A stretch of 64,000 bases of DNA from a virus, in IMG/VR virus record IMGVR_UViG_3300016476_000256, positions 1 to 64,000 of that record; one strand, 5' to 3'. Position numbers and translations under genes: made by a program. This document shows positions 396 through 58,100 of the stretch, one piece after another. Every line of letters begins with the position of its first letter. The first letter of the stretch is position 1. Below the pieces are notes generated by a model. It was not told where the DNA came from and did no database searches. It was given only the letters and a program-made list of their open reading frames with translations.

Positions 396-1643
396 TTATC
401 CTCTCTTGAAGAAATTTCCTCTTGAGATTGTTCTTTGTGGTTTTGGGGAAGAAGATTGTGTTCTTCTAGGAGCTTCTTCAGGCTCTACTACAGATGAACT
501 TATTCTTCTACCTTGTTCCGTTTTTAATTGTCTTACTGCTTTCTCTGTAGCTTGTCTTGATCCTTGCTCTCTCATTTTAGATTTATAACCATCTGGATCT
601 GCAAGTAACCATAGAGCTTCTGCAATAAGATCATGTCTTGGTTCTACAAACTGATACTTCTCTAACAAGTGCCCAAGTAAGTTTGTAGGTTTACCAGAAA
701 TAGAAGGATAGTTAGGTTGAACTAATCCTGAAAACAATAAACCTTGTACTTTTCTATCAAGTTTGATTCCTCCAAGCTCACCAGTAGATAGTGTATTATA
801 TACATTATCTTGGTATTGTTTTGCTGCTTCAGCTTGTTGTTCTCTTTTCATTTCTTGTTCAGCCAACTGTCTTTCAATAATAGACTCTTGCATCTTATCC
901 AATTTTGGTTTGAACTGTTGTGCTTTTTTATCAAGCCTTCCCATGTCCATCCAATCTTCTATTTCTGCTTCAATTTCTTCTGGCGTACCAAAATTTGTTG
1001 CATGTAAGTATTGTCTTGCAATAACTATCTGATCATTCTCATCATAAGGATCTAGGTCTCTCATCTCTTCTACATGAGCAAGAGTTCTAAACAATCCTTT
1101 AAGATCAGTACCACCATCTGCAACATACTTAGCAGCAATTTGAAGTTCTTCTGGTAAAGCTTGAAAAAATTCTTTTGGTGTGTTTTCTCTAATTGCATTT
1201 TCTCTTTCTTGAAAGTTTGCTTCAAATAGTTCACGGAAATCTTTTGTTGTGTAATCCTCTAATGGTTTATCATCATCAAAAGGAATAAGAGTTCCTTCCT
1301 CAATCATTTTAGTTGCTAACTCAGCAAGACCTGATTTATCAACCTTTGGTCTGCCTTTGTTACCAGCATCCTCTTCTTGAGTAATTAAACTATCTAACTC
1401 AGCAATAGTTTCTTCTACTTCTTCTTTCTTTGCTACTTCTTCTTTAGAAGCAGGCTTGTCAAGGAACGTTGTGTCTACATTTTCTTTTGAAAACATAGAC
1501 TTAGGTTTTTCTTCATCTGCTGGAAGCATTACACTTTCTGCTCCAGGCATGCCAAACATTTCATCAATGTTTACATCTACTTGATCTACCTTTGTAGTAT
1601 CTTGCACTTGGTCTTCACCAAGTACTTTATCTAATTCATCCAT
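396..1643 (-). CDS. scaffolding protein candidate
   Basis: 415 aa, highly charged and helical-looking (EEVAKKEEVEE, QLAEQEMKREQQAEAAKQ). Located between the portal and the capsid candidate. Position-based call. Confidence 0.5.
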   Translation of the reverse strand: MDELDKVLGEDQVQDTTKVDQVDVNIDEMFGMPGAESVMLPADEEKPKSMFSKENVDTTFLDKPASKEEVAKKEEVEETIAELDSLITQEEDAGNKGRPKVDKSGLAELATKMIEEGTLIPFDDDKPLEDYTTKDFRELFEANFQERENAIRENTPKEFFQALPEELQIAAKYVADGGTDLKGLFRTLAHVEEMRDLDPYDENDQIVIARQYLHATNFGTPEEIEAEIEDWMDMGRLDKKAQQFKPKLDKMQESIIERQLAEQEMKREQQAEAAKQYQDNVYNTLSTGELGGIKLDRKVQGLLFSGLVQPNYPSISGKPTNLLGHLLEKYQFVEPRHDLIAEALWLLADPDGYKSKMREQGSRQATEKAVRQLKTEQGRRISSSVVEPEEAPRRTQSSSPKPQRTISRGNFFKRG

Positions 1644-1727
1644 ATGTGTTGGTTTTGTTTATAATTTAATATAAGAAATAAACTTCAAAAATTTATCATT
1701 TTGAAATTAATTTTTTGCACTATATAG

Positions 1728-19138: not shown

Positions 19139-19336
19139 TTATTTAATCACTCTATTAAAAGTTATATTACTTTTTGCGCGTATGTCTTTATGAGTATACT
19201 GCCAGAACTCACCTGTTTCATTTATTATCACAGTGTATATAGTATCTGTTTCATGCCCATAGTCAGTAACTAACCAAATAACCCCCGGGCCTTTTGGTGT
19301 AATAACTTCTATTCTATTAGTAGGTTCATAGATCAT
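19139..19336 (-). CDS. hypothetical protein
   Basis: 65-aa ORF. ATGA overlap with the upstream gene. Confidence 0.5.
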   Translation of the reverse strand: MIYEPTNRIEVITPKGPGVIWLVTDYGHETDTIYTVIINETGEFWQYTHKDIRAKSNITFNRVIK

Positions 19337-20001
19337 GGTAGTTCCATTTTAATTTTTTCATCCCGTTCTACTAATGTCTTATATAACTCTATATCTGTTG
19401 ACCATTCCCTACCTGTCCAAAACTCAAACCCAGAGTAGTTAGATTTATATAAACAACACTGCTCATACCCACCCAACAAATATATATATTCACAGCCTAA
19501 TATTCTAGCTGTTTCACATTCATACATTTGAGCTACAGTACCCAGTGATAATTTAGGATTAGTATAATCCCATATAAACTGGTATGCTACAAATTGATCA
19601 TTGAATGTTTTGTATAAACTAATCCCTATCAAATCTCCATCCCAGTATTCTATAACAGAGCAATCTTCAAATGATGATAAACTAATATCCCGTTTAAACC
19701 CATGATAGTCACAATACTTCTCATACAGTTCAGAATACTTTTCTCTTTCAGCAGATACATTACCTGCTTGAACTATAACTCTCTTTGATAATTTCTTAGT
19801 TGTCTTTGATGGGGAGTACTTAGATAAATCAATCCGGGTACTTCTTTCATTATACCATTTCCCCTCCCAGGGAATCCATCCTTGTTTAAGTGCGTCTGTA
19901 GAAGATTCATTTTCTTCTAGTATACCATAAGCACAATTGACTATAACTTCTAGATCACTTACTTTACCAAAACCATTAATGTGATCAAAGTAGACTTTCA
20001 C
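19333..20001 (-). CDS. aminoacyl-tRNA-protein transferase-like protein (Bpt/ATE C-terminal family)
   Basis: STRIDLSKYSPSKTTKKLSKRV and GDLIGISLY...PKLSLGTVAQ...YIYLLGGYEQCCLYKSNYSGFEFWTGREW align by eye with the Bpt/ATE core (..RI.....S.SQKRL..K ; L.AV...D...SLGT....YLYLGY...C..M.YK..F.....W). Confidence 0.6.
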   Translation of the reverse strand: MKVYFDHINGFGKVSDLEVIVNCAYGILEENESSTDALKQGWIPWEGKWYNERSTRIDLSKYSPSKTTKKLSKRVIVQAGNVSAEREKYSELYEKYCDYHGFKRDISLSSFEDCSVIEYWDGDLIGISLYKTFNDQFVAYQFIWDYTNPKLSLGTVAQMYECETARILGCEYIYLLGGYEQCCLYKSNYSGFEFWTGREWSTDIELYKTLVERDEKIKMELP

Positions 20002-20444: not shown

Positions 20445-20459
20445 ATACTAATATACAAA

Positions 20460-20591
20460 TTATTTTCCAAACTTTGTATTACTATAAGCATCACACTTTT
20501 GGGTAGACTTGCACCCAGTCATAAGATACCCTATAGCCAGACCTACACATAAAGCAAATATATATAGGCAAAATAGTTTACACTTTTCCAT
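20460..20591 (-). CDS. small lipoprotein (43 aa) with CDAY motif
   Basis: Hand-translated as MEKCKLFCLYIFALCVGLAIGYLMTGCKSTQKCDAYSNTKFGK. Signal peptide plus lipobox LMTGC. A paralogous motif occurs at 25106..25249. Confidence 0.5.
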   Translation of the reverse strand: MEKCKLFCLYIFALCVGLAIGYLMTGCKSTQKCDAYSNTKFGK

Positions 20592-20695
20592 GTAGCAAAT
20601 ATAATAAAATAACAAAGGCCCGGGCTTTCAACTCCAGACCTTTGCCATTGTTTATGTTAGCGTGACAAATATACAACTGTATTTGGATATTCCAA

Positions 20696-20783
20696 ACGGG
20701 GGTGAAAATATTTTATATTAGAGGTGGTGTGGGATCATGCTACAGACACCCCCGGGGGGCCAAGCCAAGCGGTGCTACCCCCC
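20696..20783. other. GC-rich twin hairpin in the divergent intergenic region
   Basis: CGGGGGTG (20697-20704) is complementary to CACCCCCG (20747-20754). GGGGGG (20754-20759) is complementary to CCCCCC (20778-20783). CCCCCGGGGGG palindrome and CCAAG x2. Stands out in an AT-rich genome. Confidence 0.5.
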
Positions 20784-20987
20784 ATGAATCTGAGGCAGCA
20801 ATGTCATATTCTAGGTGCAAAACAAAAAAATATTCTACCAGGAAAAAGATGTAACCCACAGATGCATGGCTATCACATGTGCTATGTGTTACATATACTA
20901 TAGTACTATACAGCTTATGTGTTATGTGTAGTGTATGCTTGCTGCTGTGCTACATCATCTAGTATCTAGTACATACTATATATACAG

Positions 20988-21005
20988 GTACTGTGTCATA
21001 CTATT
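20988..21005 (+). promoter_or_regulatory. early promoter-like motif, copy 1 (GTACTGTGTCATACTATT)
   Basis: Core starts 41 nt upstream of the ATG at 21029. Followed by the conserved leader AACCATTAAA..ATTTA. Confidence 0.6.
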
Positions 21006-21028
21006 CATAACCATTAAATACATTTACC

Positions 21029-21217
21029 ATGAAGTTTTACTATGCAACTATTACAGATTACTCAGGAAAAGAAGTACTCACATTGCAATACACTGCTACT
21101 GCTAAACATGCAGCATTCTTAGCAAAGCAATACATAGACTACTGCCCACCTGCTGCTGGCTTTAAGATCCGCATGATGATACTCAAAGCTACTGATATTG
21201 TTAGGCTCCTAAACTAG
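21029..21217 (+). CDS. hypothetical early protein
   Basis: 62-aa ORF behind motif copy 1. Confidence 0.55.
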   Translation: MKFYYATITDYSGKEVLTLQYTATAKHAAFLAKQYIDYCPPAAGFKIRMMILKATDIVRLLN

Positions 21218-21235
21218 GGGCTTAACAATGTTATG

Positions 21236-21253
21236 GTACTGTGCTTTACTACT
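21236..21253 (+). promoter_or_regulatory. early promoter-like motif, copy 2 (GTACTGTGCTTTACTACT)
   Basis: Core starts 40 nt upstream of the ATG at 21276. Confidence 0.55.
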
Positions 21254-21275
21254 AATAACTATTAAATTTATTCTT

Positions 21276-21461
21276 ATGGAAACAACTGTAATTTGTGATT
21301 ATTCTAATTCTCATGATGTCCTAACAAAAGAAGAAATTCTTTTACTTCACATCTTTGAGTATGGTGGACCTGGTATACATGAAGAACCAATTGAGTTTTG
21401 GGAACCAAGGAGTTGGGAAAACCCAAGGTACTATGTTGAAGAAGATGAGCTGCCTTGTTAA
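21276..21461 (+). CDS. hypothetical early protein
   Basis: 61 aa (METTVICDYSNSHD...). Start moved from 21228, because the longer ORF would include the promoter motif and leader. Confidence 0.5.
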   Translation: METTVICDYSNSHDVLTKEEILLLHIFEYGGPGIHEEPIEFWEPRSWENPRYYVEEDELPC

Positions 21462-21476
21462 GGTGGCTCTTGTTTA
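21447..21476 (+). terminator. hairpin terminator candidate
   Basis: GAGCUGCC/GGUGGCUC stem (8 bp including 2 G-U pairs), then TTGTTTAT. Overlaps the stop codon. Confidence 0.4.
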
Positions 21477-21481
21477 TACAG

Positions 21482-21499
21482 GTACTGTGTTATACTACT
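21482..21499 (+). promoter_or_regulatory. early promoter-like motif, copy 3 (GTACTGTGTTATACTACT)
   Basis: Core starts 41 nt upstream of the ATG at 21523. Confidence 0.6.
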
Positions 21500-21522
21500 A
21501 ATAACCATTTAAATTATTTATC

Positions 21523-21672
21523 ATGAAAAATTTTAAGCACTATGCACTTGCTGTTGTATCTATGGGTTGTATAACAGGTTTACTTATTTCTATGGGATCT
21601 CAGATCTTATTAGCTATGGGAGTTATGTCATTATTTTGGGCGGGAATGTTTGCACCAATGTTAGGGGATTAA
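21523..21672 (+). CDS. small membrane protein (49 aa)
   Basis: Hand-translated as MKNFKHYALAVVSMGCITGLLISMGSQILLAMGVMSLFWAGMFAPMLGD. Not in the track because it is under 60 aa. Confidence 0.5.
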   Translation: MKNFKHYALAVVSMGCITGLLISMGSQILLAMGVMSLFWAGMFAPMLGD

Positions 21673-21686
21673 GTTCCCCTTTTGTT
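21663..21686 (+). terminator. intrinsic terminator
   Basis: AGGGGA/TCCCCT stem, then TTTGTT. Confidence 0.55.
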
Positions 21687-21689
21687 ATT

Positions 21690-21707
21690 GTACTGTGTTA
21701 TACTATT
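21690..21707 (+). promoter_or_regulatory. early promoter-like motif, copy 4 (GTACTGTGTTATACTATT)
   Basis: Core starts 42 nt upstream of the ATG at 21732. Confidence 0.6.
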
Positions 21708-21731
21708 CTTAAACCATTAAAACTATTTACT

Positions 21732-21956
21732 ATGGATTATTTAAAACACGCTGCGTTTATTTGTATTAGCTTTGAAGAACAATCTGTTTATCCACCTTAT
21801 GGAATAAATGACTGTAATGGAAAGTTAGAGTGTACAGACCCTAATAAATACATTCAAAGAATTGCAAAAGAAATACAAGATGCACATGAGCAAGGTTTTG
21901 AGAAACTAATTATCAAGTGGAACACTGTTAGGGGTCTACATGTAATAGGGGAGTAA
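21732..21956 (+). CDS. hypothetical early protein
   Basis: 74 aa (MDYLKHAAFICISFEEQ...). Start moved from 21567 for the same reason as above. Confidence 0.55.
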   Translation: MDYLKHAAFICISFEEQSVYPPYGINDCNGKLECTDPNKYIQRIAKEIQDAHEQGFEKLIIKWNTVRGLHVIGE

Positions 21957-21967
21957 TCCCCTTTTTT
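21947..21967 (+). terminator. intrinsic terminator
   Basis: AGGGGA-GTAA-TCCCCT (6-bp stem, GNRA-type loop), then TTTTTT. Confidence 0.65.
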
Positions 21968-21975
21968 AAATACAG

Positions 21976-21993
21976 GTACTGTGTCTTACTATT
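21976..21993 (+). promoter_or_regulatory. early promoter-like motif, copy 5 (GTACTGTGTCTTACTATT)
   Basis: Core starts 42 nt upstream of the ATG at 22018. Confidence 0.6.
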
Positions 21994-22017
21994 ATTGAAC
22001 CATTAAAAGTATTTATT

Positions 22018-22179
22018 ATGTTAGTAGAAATGATTATTGCACAAATCAGAGCAGAACTTATTAAAGCAAAACAAAAACCGGATACCAAGTATCTTAACTC
22101 ATTAAAGCAGTTAAAGAGAAAGGACTTGTATGTTTTGCTAGATTCCTATAAACAGGAGAACAAGCTTATGGTTGATTAA
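22018..22179 (+). CDS. hypothetical early protein (53 aa)
   Basis: Hand-translated as MLVEMIIAQIRAELIKAKQKPDTKYLNSLKQLKRKDLYVLLDSYKQENKLMVD. Confidence 0.5.
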   Translation: MLVEMIIAQIRAELIKAKQKPDTKYLNSLKQLKRKDLYVLLDSYKQENKLMVD

Positions 22180-22200
22180 GGGGGAAACCCCTTTTTTCTT
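22178..22200 (+). terminator. intrinsic terminator
   Basis: AAGGGG-GAAA-CCCCTT hairpin, then TTTTTCTT. Confidence 0.65.
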
Positions 22201-22209
22201 TTAATACAT

Positions 22210-22227
22210 GTACTGTGTCTTACTAAT
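22210..22227 (+). promoter_or_regulatory. early promoter-like motif, copy 6 (GTACTGTGTCTTACTAAT)
   Basis: Core starts 33 nt upstream of the ATG at 22243 (shorter leader). Confidence 0.55.
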
Positions 22228-22242
22228 CTTAAAATTAAAACT

Positions 22243-22425
22243 ATGATTGCAAAACTTATTTTCACTTGGTACCTAATTACAGGTACAGTTCAACCTATTG
22301 ACAATGTTGATGGAAGAACAATCTATGCTATGCCTGATTCTAATATAGAGTATGCTTATGAAGCAGAACTTATAGAGTATATAGAGACAGGCACATTTGA
22401 GTACAATGAAGACTTGGAGGATTAA
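22243..22425 (+). CDS. hypothetical early protein
   Basis: 60-aa ORF behind motif copy 6. Confidence 0.55.
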   Translation: MIAKLIFTWYLITGTVQPIDNVDGRTIYAMPDSNIEYAYEAELIEYIETGTFEYNEDLED

Positions 22426-22438
22426 TTCCTCTGAGTCT

Positions 22439-22456
22439 GTACTGTGTCTTACTACT
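22439..22456 (+). promoter_or_regulatory. early promoter-like motif, copy 7 (GTACTGTGTCTTACTACT)
   Basis: Core starts 42 nt upstream of the ATG at 22481. Confidence 0.6.
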
Positions 22457-22480
22457 GTTAAATAATTAAACCTAAATATT

Positions 22481-22630
22481 ATGGAAGAACAAATATGTAC
22501 ATATTGTGGAGTAGGAGAATTAGAAACCTACTATGATGACTGGACTGATAGTTACTTTACAGAGCAAGTCTGCCAAGGTTGTTTAGCAGAGGACTATTAT
22601 GAAAGCTTAAATGAAAGTAAAGGGGAGTAA
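22481..22630 (+). CDS. small CxxC..CxxC protein (49 aa)
   Basis: Hand-translated as MEEQICTYCGVGELETYYDDWTDSYFTEQVCQGCLAEDYYESLNESKGE. Two CxxC pairs suggest a zinc ribbon. Confidence 0.5.
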   Translation: MEEQICTYCGVGELETYYDDWTDSYFTEQVCQGCLAEDYYESLNESKGE

Positions 22631-22648
22631 TATCCCCTTTTTCTTTTT
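22621..22648 (+). terminator. intrinsic terminator
   Basis: AGGGGA-GTAATA-TCCCCT hairpin, then TTTTCTTTTT. Confidence 0.65.
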
Positions 22649-22741
22649 ATCCACACGGTGGAGCAAGTAGACTTTAGTGCTGATAATCAGGTAGTTAGAA
22701 AATGTAATGTTTTACCCAAAATACCTCCACACTAGTCCACC
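22647..22741. promoter_or_regulatory. DnaA-box-like cluster
   Basis: Perfect TTATCCACA at 22647-22655, plus ACCTCCACA (22723-22731) and TAGTCCACC (22733-22741), in a ~140-nt non-coding gap. Confidence 0.3.
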
Positions 22742-22770
22742 ACACTTAAGAGGCTTTGCCGTCTTTTTTT

Positions 22771-22788
22771 GTACTGTGTTCTACTACT
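22771..22788 (+). promoter_or_regulatory. early promoter-like motif, copy 8 (GTACTGTGTTCTACTACT)
   Basis: Core starts 57 nt upstream of the ATG at 22828. Its flanks are similar to those of copy 9. Confidence 0.55.
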
Positions 22789-22827
22789 ATTGTTGTTTTA
22801 TTTATTAACCCATTAAAATTTATTAAA

Positions 22828-23115
22828 ATGGAAAAAATTGTAAGTGGTATTTTGGTTTCTTGTTCTGACAATTCTAAACCTAATGTTAACGGTACAATGT
22901 ACCATAACTGTACTGTTGAGCACAACGGGGAACAGTACAGTGCTGTTATGTATGCTACTGTGTATGACCGTGGCATTGCTGTTGGTAGCACAGTTAACTT
23001 CAGTGTTAAAGTTACCAATCCTGAAACAGGTGATGTTATATTATCTGTGTTAGGTACAGGTGCTAAACGCGCTACTGCAGGTGCATTTGGCATTGAAATT
23101 CCTGCTACTGTATAG
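22828..23115 (+). CDS. hypothetical early protein
   Basis: 95 aa (MEKIVSGILVSCSDNSKPNVNG...). Start moved from 22756. Confidence 0.6.
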   Translation: MEKIVSGILVSCSDNSKPNVNGTMYHNCTVEHNGEQYSAVMYATVYDRGIAVGSTVNFSVKVTNPETGDVILSVLGTGAKRATAGAFGIEIPATV

Positions 23116-23128
23116 TAGGGTTCAACAA

Positions 23129-23165
23129 ACAGGGTATGTCTACAAAGGCATACTCTGTTTTTTTG
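23129..23165 (+). terminator. strong intrinsic terminator
   Basis: 12-bp stem 23129-23140/23147-23158 (2 G-U pairs), loop TACAAA, then a T-run at 23158-23165. Confidence 0.75.
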
Positions 23166-23194
23166 TTTAATACAAGAGCTTCGCGTCTTTCTTG

Positions 23195-23212
23195 GTACTG
23201 TGTTTTACTCCT
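23195..23212 (+). promoter_or_regulatory. early promoter-like motif, copy 9 (GTACTGTGTTTTACTCCT), no ORF behind it
   Basis: Same core and flanks as copy 8. The next ~170 nt contain no ORF, but they do contain the direct repeat GTTAAC(A)CCGGTC twice (23223-23235 and 23244-23255). Confidence 0.45.
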
Positions 23213-23364
23213 CTTGTTGTTAGTTAACACCGGTCTACAACCTGTTAACCCGGTCAACACTTGTAAAACTTATGAATTAAAATAAATTCCGAAATAAGTT
23301 TGTTTAAATAAGTGTATGTAACTAACTGATTATTAACCCCACTTATTATCCTTACTTAATTATC

Positions 23365-23382
23365 CTACTGTATTTTACTATA
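23365..23382 (+). promoter_or_regulatory. early promoter-like motif, copy 10, variant (CTACTGTATTTTACTATA)
   Basis: Degenerate copy, 72 nt upstream of the ATG at 23437. Confidence 0.4.
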
Positions 23383-23436
23383 CTAGTATAGTATAGTTAA
23401 GGATTTTATATAGCTAACCCTTTAATCTTATTACTT

Positions 23437-23664
23437 ATGCATAGAGCTACTTACTTCCTATATGGAGTACTATTCAGTCTTATACTATATACTGTGTTTT
23501 ACTCTATAAGAAAGACAGATAGAAAGACTCCGGTCAAAGGTATAGACCGAGAATATTATTTAGAAGTTTCCCAAGATAGTATTTGGGTTGAATCTAGATA
23601 TGGAAAAATTTACAGTGGTAAGTATTCAGACTTAGACAGTCTTATTACCATTGATAACTTGTAA
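23437..23664 (+). CDS. small membrane protein
   Basis: 75 aa with an N-terminal TM helix (YFLYGVLFSLILYTVFYSI). Confidence 0.5.
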   Translation: MHRATYFLYGVLFSLILYTVFYSIRKTDRKTPVKGIDREYYLEVSQDSIWVESRYGKIYSGKYSDLDSLITIDNL

Positions 23665-24412
23665 TTAATTGCAATATAGTTTCTAACAGCCAGTAATGGT
23701 CATCCGAAGGTAGAGCTATAAGTTGAGAAGGATATACTTATCTAGGTATTGCAATTATTTATCCTGAGCATGATATAAAACTGCTCTTATTATTCTAAAA
23801 TTCTAGTTATAATTAACTGGTAATATGACAGCTTAGACAACTGTATTCCTATACTAGATAGGTTCTTATTGCTCACGCTAGTGACTTGCGTGTAATAAAT
23901 TAAGACTGTCTTATGATATATATAGAGTTACCTGGAATATGGTTGCACGGCTTGTTGGTACATCGTGTGTAAAAGAAAACAACCTTCTATGGGATGAAGT
24001 CCTACACCTAAGCAAGTGTTTAAACTGCTTTTATTTACTCTCATCCAAGCAGGATGTATATTCTATGATTGTTTTCCAAAGAATAACATTGGTTATATAT
24101 CTACCCATGACTTATGATGTCCGGAGGGTGTGTATATCAAGGGTTGCAACCTTGTGAGAGTATTATTAATGCACCATTCCTGATTCCCAAGGTCAGGCAG
24201 TTGTAGAAAATATAGCGGGTCTGAATTAACAGACTACATTGCTGAAAGCTGAGAGGTTACTAAAGTACACAGTGTAAAATAAAACACCTCGCTATTAGTA
24301 TATTACAAGTTACTTAATCCTTAAAAGGAAGATAATTGGAATATACACTACAACTGAGTGCAGAGGGGTATTTAACTTATAGAAACTTAATTATTAACTC
24401 AAAACTAAACTT
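23665..24412 (+). other. region without a credible ORF, locally GC-enriched; candidate structured RNA or origin
   Basis: About 750 nt with only one atypical 72-aa ORF. Several local hairpins (24042-24056, 24179-24197, 24219-24234). Long-range complementarities: 23666-23676/23747-23757 (11 bp) and 24198-24206/24348-24356 (9 bp). Bipartite motif TTATGAT-N23-GGTTGCA occurs twice, 201 nt apart. Confidence 0.3.
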
Positions 24413-25850: not shown

Positions 25851-25924
25851 GGTCCTGTAGCTCAGCTGGATAGAGCAACTGCCTTCTAAGCAGTAGGTCT
25901 TTGGTTCGAATCCAAACAGGATCA
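25851..25924 (+). tRNA. tRNA-Arg: tRNA-Arg (anticodon UCU)
   Basis: Cloverleaf folded by hand: acceptor GGTCCTG/CAGGATC (one G-T pair), D arm GCTC/GAGC, anticodon stem ACTGC/GCAGT with loop CTTCTAA, variable loop AGGTC, T arm TTTGG-TTCGAAT-CCAAA, discriminator A. No encoded CCA. Confidence 0.9.
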
Positions 25925-25942
25925 CTATTATTAACTAAACCT

Positions 25943-27271: not shown

Positions 27272-27772
27272 ATGTATAAAATGGAAAAGTTAAAACAGGA
27301 AATTAGAAATTATCAGTTGAATGCAGGTAAAACTTACATGCAGTATGAATCAGATGGGTACTCTCAGTATCAAAACTATTTGTACAAAAGAGCACTGTAT
27401 GGTTTAAATTCACTGACAGAAGAAGAGCTTGCTTCTATGTGCAGCAAAAAGAAACAGAGAGTAATCAATGTTTATAAACGTGCACAGAAAGTACTTAATG
27501 TATTCAAGCAACAGGTAACAAACCAGTATAGTAACTACATCTTCAAAACTCTGTTTCCAAAGAGTCCATGGACTGATGATATGCTTGCATATTCAGAGAC
27601 AGATGAGAAGTTTACTAACACTTTAACTTTTAAAGATTTAAATATCTCTAAACAAGATATTATTGGTATCTTTATTACTGAAGGAATTCTTCCTAAAAAC
27701 TTTTTAAGTTTAAAGGAAGCACCAGTAACATTACCAAGATTAAAAACTAAAGAAAATGAAAACATTTTATGA
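27272..27772 (+). CDS. hypothetical protein
   Basis: 166-aa ORF. An alternative start exists at 27281. Confidence 0.6.
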   Translation: MYKMEKLKQEIRNYQLNAGKTYMQYESDGYSQYQNYLYKRALYGLNSLTEEELASMCSKKKQRVINVYKRAQKVLNVFKQQVTNQYSNYIFKTLFPKSPWTDDMLAYSETDEKFTNTLTFKDLNISKQDIIGIFITEGILPKNFLSLKEAPVTLPRLKTKENENIL

Positions 27773-28510: not shown

Positions 28511-29254
28511 ATGATTATGAACATGATTGGAAAAGAATTTAAAGTAAACACAACTACAGATTATTCAAAATTTGCAGTATTACCCATGAATAGAGGTATT
28601 GATAGCAAGCATGTACAAAAGATGATTGCTAGTATCCGTAAAATGGGAGTACTAAGATGTGTTATTACTACAACCACTGATATAATAGAGGGTGAAAAGA
28701 AAAGATATATTATTGATGGTCAACATTTAGCTACTGCATTAGAGAGAGAAGAAATGCCTATTCCTTTTATTGATATTAATGTAGAATCAGAAGAAGACCT
28801 AATAATGAAGATGGCTTATCTAAATAACTCATCTAAATCTTGGGACTTAATGAATTATATTAATTCATGGAAGATGATCCGGCCAGACTACATGAAGTTA
28901 TTCAAGTGGAAGAACATGTATGACATAGAAATAACTATGTTAGCTGCAATTGGTATTAATAATGCTAGTATTAAATATAGTACTCAAAGCATTAAAACAG
29001 GTGATTTTAGAATTACTAATCCAAATGCAGAAGATATGTGTAAAGCATTTAATGATATCTTCTTAAAGATTGGTATGTCTGAGCGGTCAGTAAAGTTTCA
29101 GTTTCTTACAGCATTCTTACAGGCTTATGGTAATTATAACCATCAGAAGGTAGTTACTAATCTTGACAAGCATCTTAAGACTGTAAAGCTTATGTTGAAT
29201 GGAGAAGAAACTGCTACTTATATTAGACGTAAAATATTTAATTTACCAAAATAA
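28511..29254 (+). CDS. ParB N-terminal-domain-like protein
   Basis: LPMNRGIDSKHVQKMIASIRKMGVL...YIIDGQHLATAL resembles the ParB/Srx-fold DGQHR-type motif. Confidence 0.55.
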   Translation: MIMNMIGKEFKVNTTTDYSKFAVLPMNRGIDSKHVQKMIASIRKMGVLRCVITTTTDIIEGEKKRYIIDGQHLATALEREEMPIPFIDINVESEEDLIMKMAYLNNSSKSWDLMNYINSWKMIRPDYMKLFKWKNMYDIEITMLAAIGINNASIKYSTQSIKTGDFRITNPNAEDMCKAFNDIFLKIGMSERSVKFQFLTAFLQAYGNYNHQKVVTNLDKHLKTVKLMLNGEETATYIRRKIFNLPK

Positions 29255-30348
29255 TGGAAAGACAGGAAATACAAGATGAAGCTTTAAAAGCTACTGAGGG
29301 TAAACAAAGATGCACAATTGTACTTGGTACAGGTGTAGGTAAAACCCTTGTTGGTTTAAAGCACATGGAGAAACATTATTCTCCATTACAAAGCATTCTG
29401 ATTGTTGCTCCCAAACTGTCTATCATTAGCTCATGGAGATATGAAGCTGAGAAATTTGGGTTAAGTAAAGTATTGGAAAATGCTAAGTTTACTACTTATC
29501 TCAGCTTAAATAAACATAATCCTGATGAATATGATGCAGTTTACTTTGATGAAGTGCACAGTTTATTAGATAGTCACAGATCTTTTCTTAATAATTATGC
29601 AGGTAGAGTACTGGGTTTAACTGGTACTCCACCAAAGCATAAGACATCTGAAAAGGGTAAGATAATATCTGAATACTGCCCAGTTGTCTATACTTTTAAG
29701 GCAGATGATGCAATAGAAAATGGTATTATTAATGATTATCAAATAATTGTGCATGAGATTAATCTAGATACAGCAAAGAACTACAAAGTTTCAACACAGA
29801 AAGGAAGTTTTATGACATCTGAGTTGCAGAACTATGGTTATTGGGGTACAAGGATTGATACAGGGTCAGGGCAACCTCATATTCTTAGAGTAATGAGAAT
29901 GAAAGCAATGATGGAGTATCCAAGTAAAGAGAGATATGCAAAAGCTTTGTTAAACAGTATAACAAGCAAGTGTATTGTATTTGCTAACACTCAAGAGCAG
30001 GCTGACAGAATGTGTGAACATAGCTATCACAGTACCAATGAAAGTTCTCATGAGAACCTACTTGATTTTAAGAAAGGTAAGATAAATAAACTTTCATGTG
30101 TGCTGCAGTTAAATGAAGGTGTAAACATACCAGGTTTAAAACAAGGTATTATTATGCATGCATATGGTAATGAGCGTAAGGCTAGTCAAAGAATAGGAAG
30201 ACTTTTGCGTTTAAATCCAGATGACAAGGCTATTGTGCACATACTATGTTATGTAAATACAGTTGATGAGAAATGGGTTAAAGATGCTTTAGAAGACTTT
30301 AACCAAAGTAAAATAGTGTGGAGAAATTATAGCTTGCAAGGCACATAA
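29254..30348 (+). CDS. SF2 (DEAD/DEAH-box type) helicase
   Basis: Walker A LGTGVGKT, DEVH box (YFDEVHS), LTGTPP (motif III), QRIGRLLR (motif VI). Confidence 0.75.
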   Translation: MERQEIQDEALKATEGKQRCTIVLGTGVGKTLVGLKHMEKHYSPLQSILIVAPKLSIISSWRYEAEKFGLSKVLENAKFTTYLSLNKHNPDEYDAVYFDEVHSLLDSHRSFLNNYAGRVLGLTGTPPKHKTSEKGKIISEYCPVVYTFKADDAIENGIINDYQIIVHEINLDTAKNYKVSTQKGSFMTSELQNYGYWGTRIDTGSGQPHILRVMRMKAMMEYPSKERYAKALLNSITSKCIVFANTQEQADRMCEHSYHSTNESSHENLLDFKKGKINKLSCVLQLNEGVNIPGLKQGIIMHAYGNERKASQRIGRLLRLNPDDKAIVHILCYVNTVDEKWVKDALEDFNQSKIVWRNYSLQGT

Positions 30349-30364
30349 TTCTTATATTTATTAT

Positions 30365-30619
30365 ATGGAAGATGTTAAGACACATAAACTTATTCTGCAT
30401 AATGACAAGAAAAATACATTTGCATATGTAATGGCTTGTCTCATAAGATTTTGTGAGCACCATCCAACACAAGCAGAACAGTGTGCTTTGCTTGCACATG
30501 AGATGGGAAGATGCACAGTAAAATCTGGTGACTTACTAGAAATGCTTGAGATTTCAGAATCTTTGCGTAATTTAGAGCTCAAAACATCAGTAGAACAGTA
30601 TGAGAGCAATATGCATTGA
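30365..30619 (+). CDS. clpS: ATP-dependent Clp protease adaptor ClpS homolog
   Basis: HKLILHNDKKNTFAYVMACLIRFCEHHPTQAEQCALLAHEMGRCTV aligns by eye with the E. coli ClpS core [24 protein letters not shown]....A.QLMLAVHYQGKAICGV. Confidence 0.8.
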   Translation: MEDVKTHKLILHNDKKNTFAYVMACLIRFCEHHPTQAEQCALLAHEMGRCTVKSGDLLEMLEISESLRNLELKTSVEQYESNMH

Positions 30620-30875
30620 TGCTTCAAATAAACCAAGCAAAGTACCTGAAAGTGAGTGGGTTATAGAAGGTGAAGTTTATACTATTACCAGAGTTGTTAG
30701 AATGGGATTACAGGATAATAAGTTTGGTGTTTTATTAAAAGAAGTTAAGCTATCAAGCAGTTCTTTTCCTTATGAGTTATATGACGCAGAAAGGTTTTTA
30801 CCAATTGATTTACTAGCAGAAGCATTTCAAGATAAAGAAGAAACAGTTAAAGAAGCTGACTTAGAACTAATTTAA
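30600..30875 (+). CDS. hypothetical protein
   Basis: 91-aa ORF. Confidence 0.55.
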   Translation: MRAICIDASNKPSKVPESEWVIEGEVYTITRVVRMGLQDNKFGVLLKEVKLSSSSFPYELYDAERFLPIDLLAEAFQDKEETVKEADLELI

Positions 30876-33353: not shown

Positions 33354-33572
33354 ATGATTATTTTAAGAAAAGGAGAGGAAAGGAAGGGATACAGAGTATT
33401 AATTGTAAAAGAGAATGAACAAGCCGGGACTAAGTTTGCAGTGCAACAGAAGGGCAAGTTCTTATTGTTTTTTACTAAATGGACATTTGTTAAGGATCAA
33501 GCTGGAGATATTAAGCTGTTTGATTCTAACAAGAACGCAAGTGCTTATATCAACTTTAAAAATAGGTGGTAG
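33354..33572 (+). CDS. hypothetical protein
   Basis: 72-aa ORF. Confidence 0.5.
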   Translation: MIILRKGEERKGYRVLIVKENEQAGTKFAVQQKGKFLLFFTKWTFVKDQAGDIKLFDSNKNASAYINFKNRW

Positions 33573-34429
33573 AAAAAGTCACGCGGAAAACATTTAAGAT
33601 AAGACCAAGTGGAAGGAGCACTGATTTCATTGCTCCTTCTTTTGGTTTTGGCTGTTTATTTAACTGTAGTTATTGCTACATGAAAAGACATAAGCCAGAA
33701 GGACTGTCTGTAGCAACAAATACTATGGATATCCTGACAGAGATTAATTCACATGTTTGGTTTGCTGATGTAGAGAAGCCTAACCAGACAGGAGAGTATA
33801 TTACTTACGATATCTCATGTAATGAGGACTTTGCTCTGCATGCTAAGTACTATGACTGGGAGACTATCTTTAAGTTCTTTAGAGATCATCCACTTGCTAT
33901 GGGTTCATTTGCTACTAAGTATGTAAATGCAGATTTGTTTGAATTTAATCCAGAAGGTAAGATTAGAATTAGATTTAGTCTGATGCCGGAGAAATGGAGA
34001 AAGATACTAGAACCTAATACCAGTCCAATTGATTTAAGATTAAATGCTGTACCAAGATTTATAGATGCTGGTTATGAAGTTCATCTTAACTTTAGTCCTG
34101 TAATAGTACATGACAATTGGTTAACTGAATATGAGTTTTTGTTTGATATAATTAAGAAACATGCAACATATAACAGTTGGATTACAGATGCTGTAAAAGC
34201 TGAAGTAATCTTTCTTACTCATAATGAACAAAAGCATCTGTATAATCTACAACATAAAATTCCAGGTGAGCATTTACTTTGGGCACCCAAAATACAAGAA
34301 GCTAAAACTTCTCAGTATGGTGGTAAGAACATCCGGTATGAGCACAACAGAAAGGCTGATTATATTAAGCAGTGGACTGAGTTACACGACAGTATAATAC
34401 CCTGGAATACAATCAGATATATATTTTAA
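33566..34429 (+). CDS. radical SAM enzyme of the spore photoproduct lyase (SplB) family
   Basis: CLFNCSYC gives the CxxxCxxC cluster. Collinear by eye with B. subtilis SplB: IAPSFGFGCLFNCSYCYMK vs AIPFATGCMGHCHYCYLQ, and KIRIRFSLMPEKWRKILEPNTSPIDLRLNAVPRFIDAGYEVHLNFSPVIVHDNW vs KTRFRFSINADYVIKNFEPGTSPLDKRIEAAVKVAKAGYPLGFIVAPIYIHEGW. GTG start. Confidence 0.85.
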   Translation: MVEKVTRKTFKIRPSGRSTDFIAPSFGFGCLFNCSYCYMKRHKPEGLSVATNTMDILTEINSHVWFADVEKPNQTGEYITYDISCNEDFALHAKYYDWETIFKFFRDHPLAMGSFATKYVNADLFEFNPEGKIRIRFSLMPEKWRKILEPNTSPIDLRLNAVPRFIDAGYEVHLNFSPVIVHDNWLTEYEFLFDIIKKHATYNSWITDAVKAEVIFLTHNEQKHLYNLQHKIPGEHLLWAPKIQEAKTSQYGGKNIRYEHNRKADYIKQWTELHDSIIPWNTIRYIF

Positions 34430-45186: not shown

Positions 45187-45611
45187 TGATTTTAACAAAA
45201 GAAGAAGTAAAGAATCTGATTGGAATGCTAAGATCTCCCGACAAGGATAATAGACTTGTAGCCTTTAAGATAATAGAGGATCTAAATCTTAAAAAACATG
45301 TTGGGGAGATAATGGTAATGTATAAATATGGTGAGTATAATTTAGAGAGTTGGGAAGCTGACTGTAAACCTGCTTATGAGTTTATAGTAAAGAGGATTGA
45401 AAAGTTCAATGGAGATTGGGAAAACAAACTAAGATCTGGAGAAATACTTTCACTAATGACAGCAAATAAATCTAGTAAGCAATCAATAGAATTATTCTTA
45501 GAATATTTTATTAGAGACATGACTAAAATGTTAGATGCTATGGGGTATCCCACAGATAAATTTGAGTTAGGTATAAAACTAAAAGAAGATGGACAAACAA
45601 AAGAGTCTTAG
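45186..45611 (+). CDS. hypothetical protein
   Basis: 141-aa ORF. Confidence 0.6.
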   Translation: MILTKEEVKNLIGMLRSPDKDNRLVAFKIIEDLNLKKHVGEIMVMYKYGEYNLESWEADCKPAYEFIVKRIEKFNGDWENKLRSGEILSLMTANKSSKQSIELFLEYFIRDMTKMLDAMGYPTDKFELGIKLKEDGQTKES

Positions 45612-46767
45612 TAAAATTAGTAAAGAGCTGATGTTAAAAGAGCCCTATTATGGGTTCTTTCTTATTATGCTCAACAAAGTATGGAGAAAAGATCTTCCTA
45701 CTGCAGGTGTGAGTAAGAATGGTATCAACTTTCAGTTGGCTATCAATGAGGATTTTTGGACAAGCCTGAGTGAGATGCATCAAATGGGATTACTAAAGCA
45801 TGAATTACTTCATATTGCTTTTGGTCATCTTACAAGTTTCAAGTCTTTTAAGAATCATAGACTTGCAAATGTAGCAATGGACATGGAAATCAATCAGTAT
45901 ATAGATGAAGATTGGTTACCAAAGGGAGGAATAGATATAAATGACTATGAAGATCTAAATCTTGAAAGAAAAGCTGGTTGTAGATATTACTATGACAAGT
46001 TGAATCAGTTTCAAGATGAGAAGGATAAGAATGGTAGCTGTGGTAATGAAGATATGGATAAGTTACTTGACCAAGTAGCTAATGGAGAAGGACCAGACCA
46101 CAGTACATGGGGAGAGTTTGAAGATCTTAGTGAAGCTGAGCAAAAGCTAATAGAGAAACAATTACAGAAAGTTTTGCAAGATGCTAAAGAACAGACTATC
46201 AAGAAGCGCGGAAATATTCCAGGTGAGATAGAAGGAGTAATTGTTATTGAGGAAATAGTTCCACCTAAGTTTGATTGGCGGGGATATATTAGAAGATTTA
46301 CTGGAGTGAGCACAAAGGTATTTACAAAGAAAATCCGCAGAAAAGAAAACAGGAGATATGATGAAAATCCAGGTCTGAAGATTAAGATGAGACAGCATAT
46401 GTTGTTGGCTATTGATACTTCAGGTTCTGTGAGTGATAATGAGCTACAAGAGTTCATGGGTGAGATTCACCATATTTACAAAACAGGTGTAGATGTGACT
46501 GTAATGCAGTGTGATACTAGCATTAGATCTATTGAGCCCTATAAAGGTAAGAATGAAATAAAAGTAGCAGGAAGAGGAGGAACAGAGTTTGATCCTGTCT
46601 TGGATTATTATAATGCTAACCAAAAGAAATATACTAGCCTGGTGTATTTTACTGATGGTGAGTGTTATACATCTGTAGTACCAAAAGGTAATGTCCTTTG
46701 GGTATTGTCAGAAAGATCACATATGAATGAAAGTTTACCAGGTAGAGTAATAAAATTAGAATTATAA
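45589..46767 (+). CDS. metallopeptidase-like (HExxH) + VWA domain protein (DUF2201-like)
   Basis: HELLHIAFGH in the N-terminal half. MIDAS-type LLAIDTSGSV in the C-terminal half. Confidence 0.7.
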   Translation: MDKQKSLSKISKELMLKEPYYGFFLIMLNKVWRKDLPTAGVSKNGINFQLAINEDFWTSLSEMHQMGLLKHELLHIAFGHLTSFKSFKNHRLANVAMDMEINQYIDEDWLPKGGIDINDYEDLNLERKAGCRYYYDKLNQFQDEKDKNGSCGNEDMDKLLDQVANGEGPDHSTWGEFEDLSEAEQKLIEKQLQKVLQDAKEQTIKKRGNIPGEIEGVIVIEEIVPPKFDWRGYIRRFTGVSTKVFTKKIRRKENRRYDENPGLKIKMRQHMLLAIDTSGSVSDNELQEFMGEIHHIYKTGVDVTVMQCDTSIRSIEPYKGKNEIKVAGRGGTEFDPVLDYYNANQKKYTSLVYFTDGECYTSVVPKGNVLWVLSERSHMNESLPGRVIKLEL

Positions 46768-46772
46768 AAATT

Positions 46773-47942
46773 ATGAACACAGTACAATTAAACGTAGAAG
46801 AGTTAAAAGGATTTATCCGTCACATGGTTAAAAATAACCAGCATATTCAAGCTGAAGGCAAAGTGCCTGTTGCAATTAATATAGAGGGTGATGCCGGTCT
46901 TGGTAAGACTTCTGCTATTATGCAGTTGGGTAAAGAGCTTGGTATGGATGTAGTAAAATTGAATCTATCTCAGATAGAAGAGCTAGGTGACCTTGTTGGT
47001 TTTCCTGTGAAAGAATTCTTGGTAAGAAATAAAGAAGGTAAACAAAGATGGATAACTGAAGCTCAAGTTCCTGGAGCTCTGAAAGCAGAATATACTGTTG
47101 TTGATAAGAGAATGGCTCATGCTGCTCCTGAGTGGATTCAAGGTAAAGGTGAGGGTGGCTTCTTGGTATTGGATGATTATACTCGTGCAGACCACAGATT
47201 TATGCAAGCTACTATGGAGATTTTAGATAGACAAGAATATGTTTCTTGGAAGCTACCTAAGAACTGGCATGTTATCTTAACCACTAATCCAGACAATGGT
47301 GACTATAATGTTACTAGCTTAGATGTTGCTCAGAAGACTAGATTTATTTCTGTAGAGATGAAGTATGATTCTGATGTATGGGCTAAGTGGGCAGAGAAAG
47401 CAGGGATAGATGGTAGATGTATTAACTTTATGTTGATGCATCCTGAGCTTGTAACTCAAAGAGTTAACCCAAGATCTATTACTACATTCTTTAATGCTAT
47501 TAGTTCTATTCCTAAGTTTGAAGATGATCTACCTCTAATCCAAATGATTGGTGAGGGTTCTGTGGGAGCAGATTTTAGTTCTATGTTTACTATGTTTATC
47601 AATAATAAACTAGATAAGTTGATTTCTCCTGAAGATATCTTGACTAAAGATAAGGATTATGTAATGGGAGCTTTGACAAATGCTGTTGGTAAGGATGATG
47701 ACTTTAGAGCAGACATCTCTAGTATTATTGCAACACGGGTAATTAACTATTCACTTGTTCAAGCTGAGAAAGGTGCAATTGCTCCAGCAGTAATTGACAG
47801 ATTAGCAATTCTAACTACTGAATGTGATGCATTTACAAATGACCTTAGATATTATATGGTCAAAGAAATAGTAAATGGAAACAAAGTTAAGTTTGCTAAG
47901 CTTATGCAGAATACGAATGTGGTGAAGATGGCTATCCAGTAA
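46773..47942 (+). CDS. MoxR-like AAA+ ATPase
   Basis: Walker A GDAGLGKTS, Walker B FLVLDDYTRA. Paired with the VWA gene, as in MoxR-VWA systems. Confidence 0.7.
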   Translation: MNTVQLNVEELKGFIRHMVKNNQHIQAEGKVPVAINIEGDAGLGKTSAIMQLGKELGMDVVKLNLSQIEELGDLVGFPVKEFLVRNKEGKQRWITEAQVPGALKAEYTVVDKRMAHAAPEWIQGKGEGGFLVLDDYTRADHRFMQATMEILDRQEYVSWKLPKNWHVILTTNPDNGDYNVTSLDVAQKTRFISVEMKYDSDVWAKWAEKAGIDGRCINFMLMHPELVTQRVNPRSITTFFNAISSIPKFEDDLPLIQMIGEGSVGADFSSMFTMFINNKLDKLISPEDILTKDKDYVMGALTNAVGKDDDFRADISSIIATRVINYSLVQAEKGAIAPAVIDRLAILTTECDAFTNDLRYYMVKEIVNGNKVKFAKLMQNTNVVKMAIQ

Positions 47943-55119: not shown

Positions 55120-55137
55120 TCTTCCCCTTATTTTTTT
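55102..55137. terminator. bidirectional terminator between convergent blocks
   Basis: GGGGAAG/CTTCCCC stem (55107-55113/55121-55127), flanked by AAAAA on the 5' side and TTATTTTTTT on the 3' side. Confidence 0.7.
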
Positions 55138-58100
55138 ACTGTAAATTTTCAAATGCTTGGTATTTCTTAATAGCCCAAATACCACCTTCTGTTAATTCAT
55201 TTTTACCTTTAAGTCCATAAAGTGACCCTAAGTGATTCCAAAGTTTATATTCTCCTTCTTTTTGCCATCTATAAGGTCCTATATCTTGACTATATCTAGC
55301 TTCTTTTTCATCACCTTCTGCAATATTATAAAGATCCTGACCTATTTTAGTATACAACACAACTGTATTATCTAATGCTATTGTTGTTGTTTTAAAATAC
55401 TTTGTTCCTTGCTCTGGAAGATAAATAGGTACAAAAGATTGGTTTTCCATTTTAGTCATTATCAAAAGATAAAGCAAATGGTTTTCAAGTTGACCTTGTG
55501 TTGTTGTACCTCTTGCTTTTAATTTTTTCCACTTATCTTCATCATCTGGGTCATATCCAAAATACCATGACCCAATAATCATTGCTAATAAGAAGTATCC
55601 AACATTTTCAACAATTACTTTTTTGGCTGCAGCTTTTTCATCCTCAGTCATTATTGCAGTATCTTTACCTACTGATCTAATAAGTCTCAAGGCATTCTGT
55701 AGAGTATTCATGTAATAACCTTTATCTAAAGTATTAGTATCCCAGTTATATACATATCCACCTCTATTACCTTTATCAGTATCTATTTGAAACTTATCAA
55801 GGAACATTCCTGTAGCAAATCTTTTGTAGAAAGTAAATGCGCGGTATCCTAAATATTTTTCAGCTTGTGGTGTATCAAATACATCCATTAAACCTGTTGT
55901 CTTTTTCTGTGCAGATTGTAGTAAGAATTTCATATTTAAGAATTCTTCCATGTTACCTACAGTGATTTTATCTCCGGGTTCAAGTTTTGATATATCAGTT
56001 ATACCACTTCTTCTTTTAACTTGTTCAGGTGTTATATTATATCTTTTAGCAATACTTTCAAAAGTATCTCCACGTTTATATTCATGATCTACTTTTTTAT
56101 AGTCATATGCTGGATCAATACCTTCTTTTAGTTTTAAAATACCTTTATCATCTGTTTCCCATGCATCAGCATAAGCTATATCCTCAGAAGATCCTGCTTG
56201 AGGAATGTATTTATTATACATCATACCCCAGAACATTTCTAAAGCTGCCTCAAGTTCCATTGTTCTTCTAAAGTCATATGCATAAGTTAAATCTGCTAAG
56301 TCTTTTAGTTTTGATCTAGAAGATGATTTACCAAAGTTTTTATCAAACATTGCTGTAGGATCCATTCTTTCTACTAACTGTATGTCAGCTGATTTAATTC
56401 CTTGCTCATAAATATCTTTGAAGACCCAGTACATTGCAGATTGTTTAGCTTTTGCATATCCTTTAGCTAATGACATTGGTGTAACATTTTTACCACCTGC
56501 TGCGTATATAGCATTTTGATAAAGCATCCCCCAGCGGTTTTTAATAGCTGACTGTGGATCAAATGCAATAAATGCTCTTGATGATCTTCTAAATAAACCT
56601 TGAACAATTTTAGTTATCCATGCATTTTCTTCATCAAATGTTCCAGTAGTTTTACCATAGAAGATTTTTCTGACCTGATGTTTTACTGCACCTAGTCTTC
56701 TATTATCCTCTTTACTGATAAATTCTTTTTTACCTGTTCTTTGATATTCTTGTTTATCAATTTTTGATAAATCTTTAATACCATTCTGATCAAGAACACT
56801 TTCTAAAGCTTCAGCAATTGGTTCATTTTCTAATAATACTTTTTGTTCTTCTAGAGAGAGTAGATAGTCATACATTCCTCTTAGTACATCTTTAGAGACG
56901 CGCTTTTGATCTAAATTATATAAACCTCTAATTCTAACTTTATTAACTGGTCTTCCATCTAAGTCTGTTGTAACTAAATTAAAATTAGCATCATGATTAA
57001 ATCCAAACTCTGAATCATCCACATCTCTACCAAACCAGGTTTTCCATAAACCTTTAAATCCACCAACTTTTTCTAATAAGTTTTCTTTAGCTTCTCCAGA
57101 TGCAACATATTCTAAATTACCTCTTTTTCTAAACCTTGGCATTTCTAAGTACAATCTACTTGAAACAGGTTTATCTTTTTGAATTTGTAGCATAGATTCA
57201 GTAATTGCATTTAATAACTGAAACTCTGGACCACCAGCATTTTGCATTTCTAAATATTCTTCATTTTGATATTTTTTATCAAATGCAGAATTAGGATCAC
57301 CAATTTTATACTCCCTAGGTAAATAGTTACCTTTATTATCTACAATGGTTCCAACATAATTATCCCAACTTTCACCTCTTGGTATTGTTAAGAATTCACT
57401 TTTTATTCTACTCTTAGTATATTTACCAGCAGGTCTTCCTATAATTTTTCTTTCTGTCTTAGTTAGGGGGTCAATAATTTCTGTTGTAACATAATGATCA
57501 GTATTATTTGGAACCTTCATTGTCCAAGCAGCAATTCTAAAGTTTTTAATTACATCCCTATTTAAGTCTATATCAAATACTTCTTTTTGATAATGATTCC
57601 TACCATACCATTTTGCAAACTCTGGATTTTCTAAAGCTTTAACTAAATTTTCTCCATTTATCCACTTATCTGCATTGTCTAAATTTATTTCAGGAAGTTC
57701 CATATCTCTTATAGCATAGTTAAATGCTTCAAGATAATAGTCTGTTGGAATTTTACTTTCAAGTTCTCTTAGTTCTGCAAATCTTGCTTTAAGTGCTGCT
57801 AATTCTGCAGTAGTTAATCCCATTTCATTTTTAATAGAAAGTATTTCTGCATAATCTTTTCTTTCTTCTGGAGTTAATTTAGTTCCAGCAGCAGCTTTTG
57901 CAATGTATGAATCATACCTTTTAGTTTGATCTTTTGTCAATCCAGTCTTTCTATCAAACTGTTCTTCTAATGCTACTATTTCATCTTCTATTTTCTTTAA
58001 AAGATTAATTTGTTCTGGAGAAAGGTTTAACCCGTTAGGTTGTCCATTAGCATCAGATGTAGAAGTAGATAAATTAAATCTAGTTTTATAAAGTTCAGCT

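Follow-up and report, generated by a model that had tools for sequence, protein, structure and literature searches.

An 84-residue ClpS-family protein without the N-terminal extension, encoded as a core gene in a large uncultured phage family, may act as a decoy adaptor

A natural ClpS protein that has no N-terminal extension, is Bacteroidota-derived and is encoded at a fixed place behind a helicase gene occurs in a large family of uncultured phages with distant kinship to crAss-like and Flavobacterium phages. We describe the gene from the window, that is, the whole 64,000-nucleotide stretch analyzed (positions 1 to 64,000 of IMG/VR record IMGVR_UViG_3300016476_000256), in which it occupies 30365..30619 on the plus strand and encodes 84 aa from an ATG start. 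By analogy with the dissected E. coli protein, we propose tentatively, at a probability of about 0.4, that the phage protein is a decoy or inhibitor that would dampen host ClpS-dependent (N-end-rule) proteolysis, a reading favored because about 13 N-terminal residues are missing and E. coli ClpS needs 14 for delivery. The initial annotation had put forward three roles, namely cooperation with a Bpt-like enzyme, redirection of host ClpAP and blocking of ClpAP, and it is the last of these that fits best.

Membership in the ClpS family, which the initial annotation had proposed from the letters alone, is borne out by profile and by fold. The Pfam ClpS profile (PF02617) gives 49.3 bits (E=4.1e-13), above its gathering threshold of 23, with phage residues 5-67 aligned to profile positions 4-66 of 80. 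The AF2 model has a pLDDT of 92 and the element order E7-12, H19-30, H34-47, E49-55, H57-69 and E73-78, and all 38 Foldseek matches in the PDB at E<=0.001 are ClpS; the M. smegmatis protein superposes with a TM score of 0.87, Arabidopsis ClpS1 with 0.86 and E. coli ClpS with about 0.77. After the ClpS entries comes the ClpS-like domain of Ubr1; the C-terminal domain of ribosomal protein L7/L12 first appears at rank 49 (E=0.026) and was ruled out as the true family. JGI automatic annotation likewise labels the members of this family's cluster as ClpS. The protein lies far from the curated equivalogs, however: the best NCBIfam model, NF000671, gives 26 bits against a cutoff of 107, the lowest ClpS cutoff being at least 86 bits, and in all seven further NCBIfam ClpS models reported the phage protein falls below the cutoff. 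A PHROGs search returned a marginal match (E=0.049), a TPR-repeat match from a single-sequence search of PDB sequences was dismissed as spurious, and megablast of the phage DNA against GenBank phages gave zero matches. Residues ~5-78 make up the fold, and the final 6-7 residues form an added tail outside the core.

The residues expected of an N-degron pocket are retained by alignment. The phage motif reads L-H12-N13-D14-K15-K16-N-T-F, and N13, D14 and H45 correspond to E. coli N34, D35 and H66, as the initial annotation had recognized; in solved ClpS structures the equivalent residues hold the alpha-amino group of the N-degron. Within the window's own ClpS family, 114 of 116 homologs have H45 and all have N13 and D14. 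The Lys reported for the second Asp of the NDD motif is equally real, with K15 at the position of E. coli D36. Judged by the same 116 sequences, it is nevertheless no family-wide feature, the position being K in 51, D in 43, N in 12, S in 5, E in 2 and G in 1, compared with D in 81%, E in 17% and N in 3% of host ClpS proteins. With the Asp of the host at position 20 replaced by T, L, E or A and position 15 being K, D or N, two acidic residues are gone from the pocket rim. The pocket loop N17-T18-F19 is that of host Bacteroidota ClpS and not the proteobacterial T-P-M with its gatekeeper Met40. For docking, D56 and E59 on helix 3 correspond to E. coli E79 and E82, an acidic pair whose part in docking is conserved whether ClpS is linked to ClpA or to ClpC; across the family, position 56 is D or E in 75% and position 59 E or D in 77%. 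Docking may be altered, because the equivalent of K84 is Leu in the window protein (alignment continued by hand) and Leu or Phe in the family, and the conserved host Pro after this position is Glu in the phage protein.

A further departure from cellular ClpS lies at the N-terminus. With phage T6 standing opposite E. coli M27, the protein has no N-terminal extension, in agreement with the initial annotation; only 4-5 residues precede the core, and the reading frame contains zero upstream ATG, GTG or TTG codons, the annotated ATG being the first possible start. Host Bacteroidota ClpS proteins are mostly 90 aa long with the N-D pair at about residue 26 rather than 13, a shortfall of ~13 residues; by NF000671, in which phage residues 7-78 cover model positions 17-89 of 91, the shortfall is ~10 residues, and by alignment the extension-equivalent segment comprises ~17 residues in host Bacteroidota ClpS and 4 in the phage protein. 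Length is 83-87 aa in 110 of 120 listed homologs. Of the 150 best cluster representatives drawn from 1.84 billion proteins, the majority have their start 12-20 residues ahead of that in the phage family, and other viral ClpS proteins (BFVD) measure 90-118 aa. In E. coli ClpS, strong complex formation depends on residues 20-25, ssrA inhibition on residues 17-25 (9 residues) and delivery on residues 12-25 (14 residues), with the length of the extension counting and its sequence not (PMC8666677). Acting as a degron mimic, the extension enters and binds the pore of ClpA, and delivery stops when it is kept out (PMC9663308). These length rules hold for E. coli ClpA and may not apply to ClpC-type partners. 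In sequence terms, then, the phage protein is the equivalent of the laboratory "ClpS core", having the pocket and the docking surface and lacking the delivery arm.

Comparison with host proteins separates what the phage lineage has kept from what it has changed. Conservation reaches 99-100% in both phage and host ClpS at N13, D14, F19, C30, H32, Q36-C40 and G55, and 96-100% at H45, G48 and K53; T/S18, P34 and C50 are also essentially identical and E59 largely so, and N17 is found in 88% of phage and 99% of host proteins. Phage and Bacteroidota ClpS have in common the motifs L-[YFH]-N-D-D-x-N-T-F (the second Asp being variable in phage), C30-x-H32-x-P, Q-A-E-Q-C and G-K-C-x-V-K-x-G. Conserved surface substitutions specific to the phage proteins fall at T6-H7-K8, A24, R28-F29, L61-E62 and L70. 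As a separate observation, the C-x-H...C...C arrangement formed by C30, H32, C40 and C50 (30452-30514 in the window; host loci L006-L083) is 99-100% conserved in phage and Bacteroidota ClpS, the E. coli residues at these positions being F, Y, L and C, and may represent a structural metal-binding site found only in this line of ClpS proteins.

The phage gene derives, as its sequence relationships indicate, from a Bacteroidota-type host ClpS captured by an ancestor of the phage family. Scanning one genome from each prokaryotic species yielded 568 confirmed cellular relatives, and the best 80 of these, at 40-62% identity, are almost all from Bacteroidota, among them Flavobacteriales, Bacteroidales and Chitinophagales. 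The top two "cellular" matches, L004 (JBIKJV010000380.1) and L005 (JBIPNK010000148.1, 117,852 bp), are evidently phage contigs mis-binned as bacterial: they carry the phage-type 84-aa ClpS in Phycisphaerales and Chitinophagaceae MAGs, and L005 additionally has the phage anchor gene (27272..27772, see below). The longest contig of the ATE-like cluster P0189 is also 117,852 bp. No unfoldase gene lies next to clpS in 10 host loci. Literature searches returned nothing useful on the partner unfoldase of Bacteroidota ClpS or on ClpS together with crAss-like phages, and no biochemistry on the Bacteroidota-type ClpS lineage with its N-T-F pocket loop.

The window itself is phage DNA of ~33% GC. Its minus-strand genes include portal, large terminase, tail fibers, holin and amidase, and a plus-strand replication block encodes helicase, UDG, DnaB, an AAA_24 ATPase, a primase-like gene and a family-A polymerase. 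The terminase shows ~24% identity to Flavobacterium psychrophilum phages, with weaker matches that include crAss-like Bacteroides phages. Near relatives are plentiful in metagenomes, and since their contigs cluster at 113-118 kb (reaching 160 kb), the genomes appear to be ~115 kb. Neither a Clp unfoldase nor ClpP was found by Pfam and PHROGs among the ~42 ORFs scanned of the window's 92 ORFs of at least 80 aa. Other features of the window include a divergent switch region between the transcription blocks (20450-24400) in which all ORFs are short and poorly conserved; a tRNA-Arg(TCT) at 25851-25925; a spore photoproduct lyase-like homolog (radical SAM DNA repair) at 33566-34429 on the plus strand (Pfam PF20903, 80.7 bits); a DUF2201 metallopeptidase plus VWA-like protein adjoining a MoxR-like ATPase (PHROG 1297) at 45589-47942 (plus), a pair recurrent in phages; a 2065-aa protein at 55136-61333 (minus) whose sole Pfam or PHROG match is a LysM domain near residue 1753; and an 876-aa giant protein at 61339-63969 (minus).

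Within the replication block, the position of the ClpS gene is constant. Its start lies 16 nt downstream of the stop codon for a 364-aa helicase (29254..30348, plus strand; ResIII/Helicase_C, SNF2-like) that matches PHROG 16, DNA helicase, at E=3.7e-41 and whose ResIII and Helicase_C domains are also found in the syntenic loci. Using the anchor gene at 27272..27772, we fetched 80 related loci, of which 60 were informative in that they contained the helicase and at least 1.5 kb beyond; all 60, spanning 50-98% identity, have the order helicase then ClpS, and a more distant 73-aa ClpS relative has the same place. Pairwise dN/dS of ClpS is ~0.25 (0.22 in the core and 0.48 in the tail). The gene is thus a core gene of the phage family under purifying selection and an early or replication-block gene, and its constant place together with its dN/dS argues that it is functional. 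These data contradict the idea that a host-derived gene persists as a decaying or neutral passenger without phage function. The small size of the gene, its host derivation and a length below that of the host gene would suit such a passenger, but the unchanging position across divergent relatives, the low dN/dS and a length fixed at 84 aa make it extremely improbable.

Downstream, a 91-aa ORF (30600..30875, plus strand) with no Pfam match and a conserved N-terminus, M[KR][AV]ICID, begins within the last 20 nt of ClpS. Of 85 distinct contexts, 70 have precisely this -20 nt overlap, which suggests translational coupling. The C-terminal tail of ClpS (pLDDT ~51) occurs as YESNMH, YAGNMH, HESYMY and EDESSVY, and since its variation preserves the downstream ATG and M[KR][AV]ICID, the tail is largely a by-product of the overlap; a functional docking motif Y-E-S-x-M-[YH] was ruled out as the main explanation for it, given this overlap with a conserved downstream gene. 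In one database protein, P0422, the N-terminal half of ClpS is fused to the 91-aa protein, probably through a deletion or as an assembly artifact.

The second gene that drew attention is an ATE/Bpt-like aminoacyl-tRNA-protein transferase homolog of 222 aa (19333..20001, minus strand). The initial annotation had described it as a Bpt-like enzyme, and ATE_C (PF04377) matches residues 108-193 at 36.7 bits against a cutoff of 25. There is no match to the ATE_N domain, and with 33 bits the protein reaches none of the NCBIfam arginyltransferase cutoffs (at least 170), a profile from which we regard the gene as genuine but divergent. No counterpart was found in GenBank phages, nor any phage-encoded member of the ATE/Bpt family in GenBank phages or in the literature searched. 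The gene is second in the leftward block, in a variable slot, and overlaps by 4 nt a 65-aa ORF (19139..19336, minus strand) without a Pfam match. This ORF nearly always accompanies ATE: it comes directly after it in 10 of 14 ATE loci and in 4 of the 6 ATE-bearing anchor loci (L279 and L296 being cut at the locus edge), and is missing from every ATE-minus slot examined. Across 41 relatives in which the slot is covered, 12 have ATE, 28 have an unrelated 210-aa gene, one has neither and none has both; similarly, the two genes are together at no locus among 92 ATE and 33 ALT210 loci. The ATE-like and 65-aa genes therefore constitute an accessory, swappable cassette that is independent of ClpS.

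The alternation can be seen at 19139-20001 (minus) in the window, where the ATE cassette lies, and at 2394-3026 (minus) in L252 and 1135-1767 (minus) in L299. The 210-aa ORF (MAYIEHNFFPLKVF...) is ~92% conserved and occurs on many other large contigs. The idea that it is an analogous N-terminal-modifying enzyme found no support: Pfam gives no match, the protein does not resemble ATE, the predicted structure is mainly beta with a pLDDT of 65, and no PDB fold matches at E<=0.001 (TM ~0.2).

These distributions bear on the earlier suggestion that ClpS is the second half of an N-degron module. A distance of 10.4 kb separates the two genes, which belong to divergent blocks, ClpS on the plus and the ATE-like gene on the minus strand, with the GC skew changing sign near 20 kb, so that the initial annotation was right to place them in separate transcription blocks. 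Loci centered on ClpS or ATE with 10-kb flanks contain both genes in only 2 cases. An obligate pairing was not borne out: ClpS is found in 60 of 60 relatives and ATE in 12 of 41, and because ClpS is invariant, its co-occurrence with the transferase-like gene cannot exceed the random expectation, an outcome that the initial annotation had itself named as refuting the idea. Moreover, ATE-plus and ATE-minus phages with the same ClpS N-D-x pocket motif exist, which together with the 12 of 41 argues that ClpS is independent of ATE. The residue at position 15 does not track the presence of ATE either, and Lys15 as an adaptation to Bpt-made Leu-Asp or Leu-Glu N-termini was discarded, given that Asp15 occurs with and without ATE and Lys in one close clade. 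The module idea is only weakly supported, and ClpS may cooperate with the ATE-like enzyme in those phages that carry it.

Two further explanations deserve weight besides the decoy. The protein could be a working adaptor that binds N-degron proteins and delivers them to host ClpAP or ClpCP, redirecting proteolysis toward host or defense proteins and, in ATE-carrying phages, ATE-tagged substrates as well. The conserved pocket and docking residues, the ATE/Bpt-like gene in the window and in 12 of 41 relatives, and the interpretation of jumbo-phage ClpS in just this sense (PMC7824862) speak for such a role, and ClpC-type partners may depart from the length rule established for the E. coli extension. 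Nevertheless, the 4-5 residues before the core contrast with the 14 that delivery requires in E. coli, the longer arm is kept by host and huge-phage ClpS, ClpS is universal but ATE is missing from 29 of 41 relatives, the two genes belong to opposite transcription blocks, and the residue at position 15 is unlinked to the presence of ATE. We hold a working adaptor to be rather unlikely.

An unlikely reading, by our estimate, is that the ClpS fold has been repurposed for a Clp-independent job in the replication module, such as binding the N-terminus or some other part of a phage protein, for instance the adjacent helicase or the overlapping 91-aa product. The fixed place after the helicase, the 20-nt overlap with the downstream gene, the conserved phage-specific surface changes (T6-H7-K8, A24, R28-F29 and L61-E62) and the distance from every NCBIfam ClpS equivalog cutoff (26 against at least 86 bits) would accord with it. 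So would the more distant extension-less representatives (71-85 aa), in 7 of 19 of which D, N, S or E stands in place of the pocket His; because of this loss N-degron binding is not invariant in the wider clade, which hints that the clade's conserved role may not be N-degron binding. The representatives concerned are P0366, P0369, P0374, P0381, P0470, P0488 and P0494 (with locus L319, 460-681), and at least one of them, P0381, occupies this position behind the helicase. Adjacency of genes is by itself a weak argument, however, and in the window's own family it is exactly the N-degron-binding residues that are unchanged, N13 and D14 in all members and H45 in all but two of 116.

The decoy reading could account for both the retained pocket and the missing arm. 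An ancestor of the phage family would have captured the ClpS core from a Bacteroidota host and kept it directly after the helicase. Like host ClpS, the protein would hold the free N-terminus of a substrate with N13, D14, H45 and its N-T-F loop, and D56 and E59 would dock it on the N-domain of ClpA/ClpC-type unfoldases. With the disordered extension lost, the segment that in E. coli ClpS is threaded into the unfoldase pore, the decoy would occupy N-degrons, unfoldase N-domains or both without delivery, and host ClpS-dependent proteolysis would be shut down or dampened during infection, with no need for the ATE-like transferase. We infer N-degron binding, host-unfoldase binding and the inhibitory outcome for the phage protein from residues and from the E. 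coli precedent, by which an anti-adaptor role is plausible. A short-armed ClpS might bind the unfoldase weakly, because the equivalents of E. coli residues 20-25 are largely missing.

Relative to known systems, the closest counterpart is the chromosomal ClpS of Bacteroidota (~90 aa; NF000671), with which the phage protein shares 40-62% identity, the lineage motifs and the fold, and from which it differs by the loss of ~13 N-terminal residues, a 7-residue C-terminal tail made by the gene overlap, surface residues A24, R28, F29, L61, E62 and L70, and a variable second Asp. The E. coli ClpS core (residues 26/27-106), a laboratory truncation, has the same domain boundaries, with phage residue 6 at M27, and the equivalents of N34, D35, H66, E79 and E82 are kept, although identity is only ~20% and TM ~0.77 and although Met40 is replaced by Phe, Thr38-Pro39 by Asn-Thr, D36 by Lys and K84 by Leu. 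In contrast to that engineered truncation, the phage version is a natural gene.

ClpS genes of jumbo phages are already known, at the level of annotation only, and have been interpreted as delivery adaptors with which the phage probably manipulates Clp proteolysis in its host (PMC7824862, PMC6102473). Those of jumbo and huge phages (Atu_ph07 gp708, RaK2-like, LR756504 and LR745206) are 90-179 aa long and keep an extension of host length, whereas the window protein has 84 aa, no extension, a genome of apparently ~115 kb and core-gene status behind a helicase. Bacteroidota-type ClpS also occurs in three huge uncultured phages, and the two examined, from phages of ~635 kb that belong to the same host phylum (L317 2950-3234, LR756504.1; L318 2947-3228, LR745206.1), are full-length and host-like at 93-94 aa with a host-length N-terminus, probably a separate capture of the same host gene. 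Compared with the bacterial Leu/N-degron pathway of Bpt or Aat, ClpS and ClpAP, the window encodes two part homologs, ATE/Bpt-like and ClpS, but the pair is neither co-transcribed nor co-varying, the ClpS lacks the delivery arm, and no unfoldase or ClpP was present among the ORFs scanned.

This phage family offers a natural experiment, in which a core-only ClpS has become fixed in every member of a large uncultured phage group, and the ATE/Bpt-like transferase near it is an independent, swappable cassette. If the decoy reading is true, it would constitute a new phage route to disarm regulated proteolysis in the host, and the physiology of the bacterial N-degron pathway would become testable through what the phage must protect. 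A more ambitious picture, doubtful though conceivable at present, is that of a widespread family of freshwater Bacteroidota phages whose ClpS-core anti-adaptor, a core gene product, would cap N-degrons, block the unfoldase N-domain or do both and so switch off the host N-end-rule pathway during infection, and, in a subset of members, an ATE/Bpt-like enzyme would rewrite N-termini to be read by the decoy and not by host ClpS.
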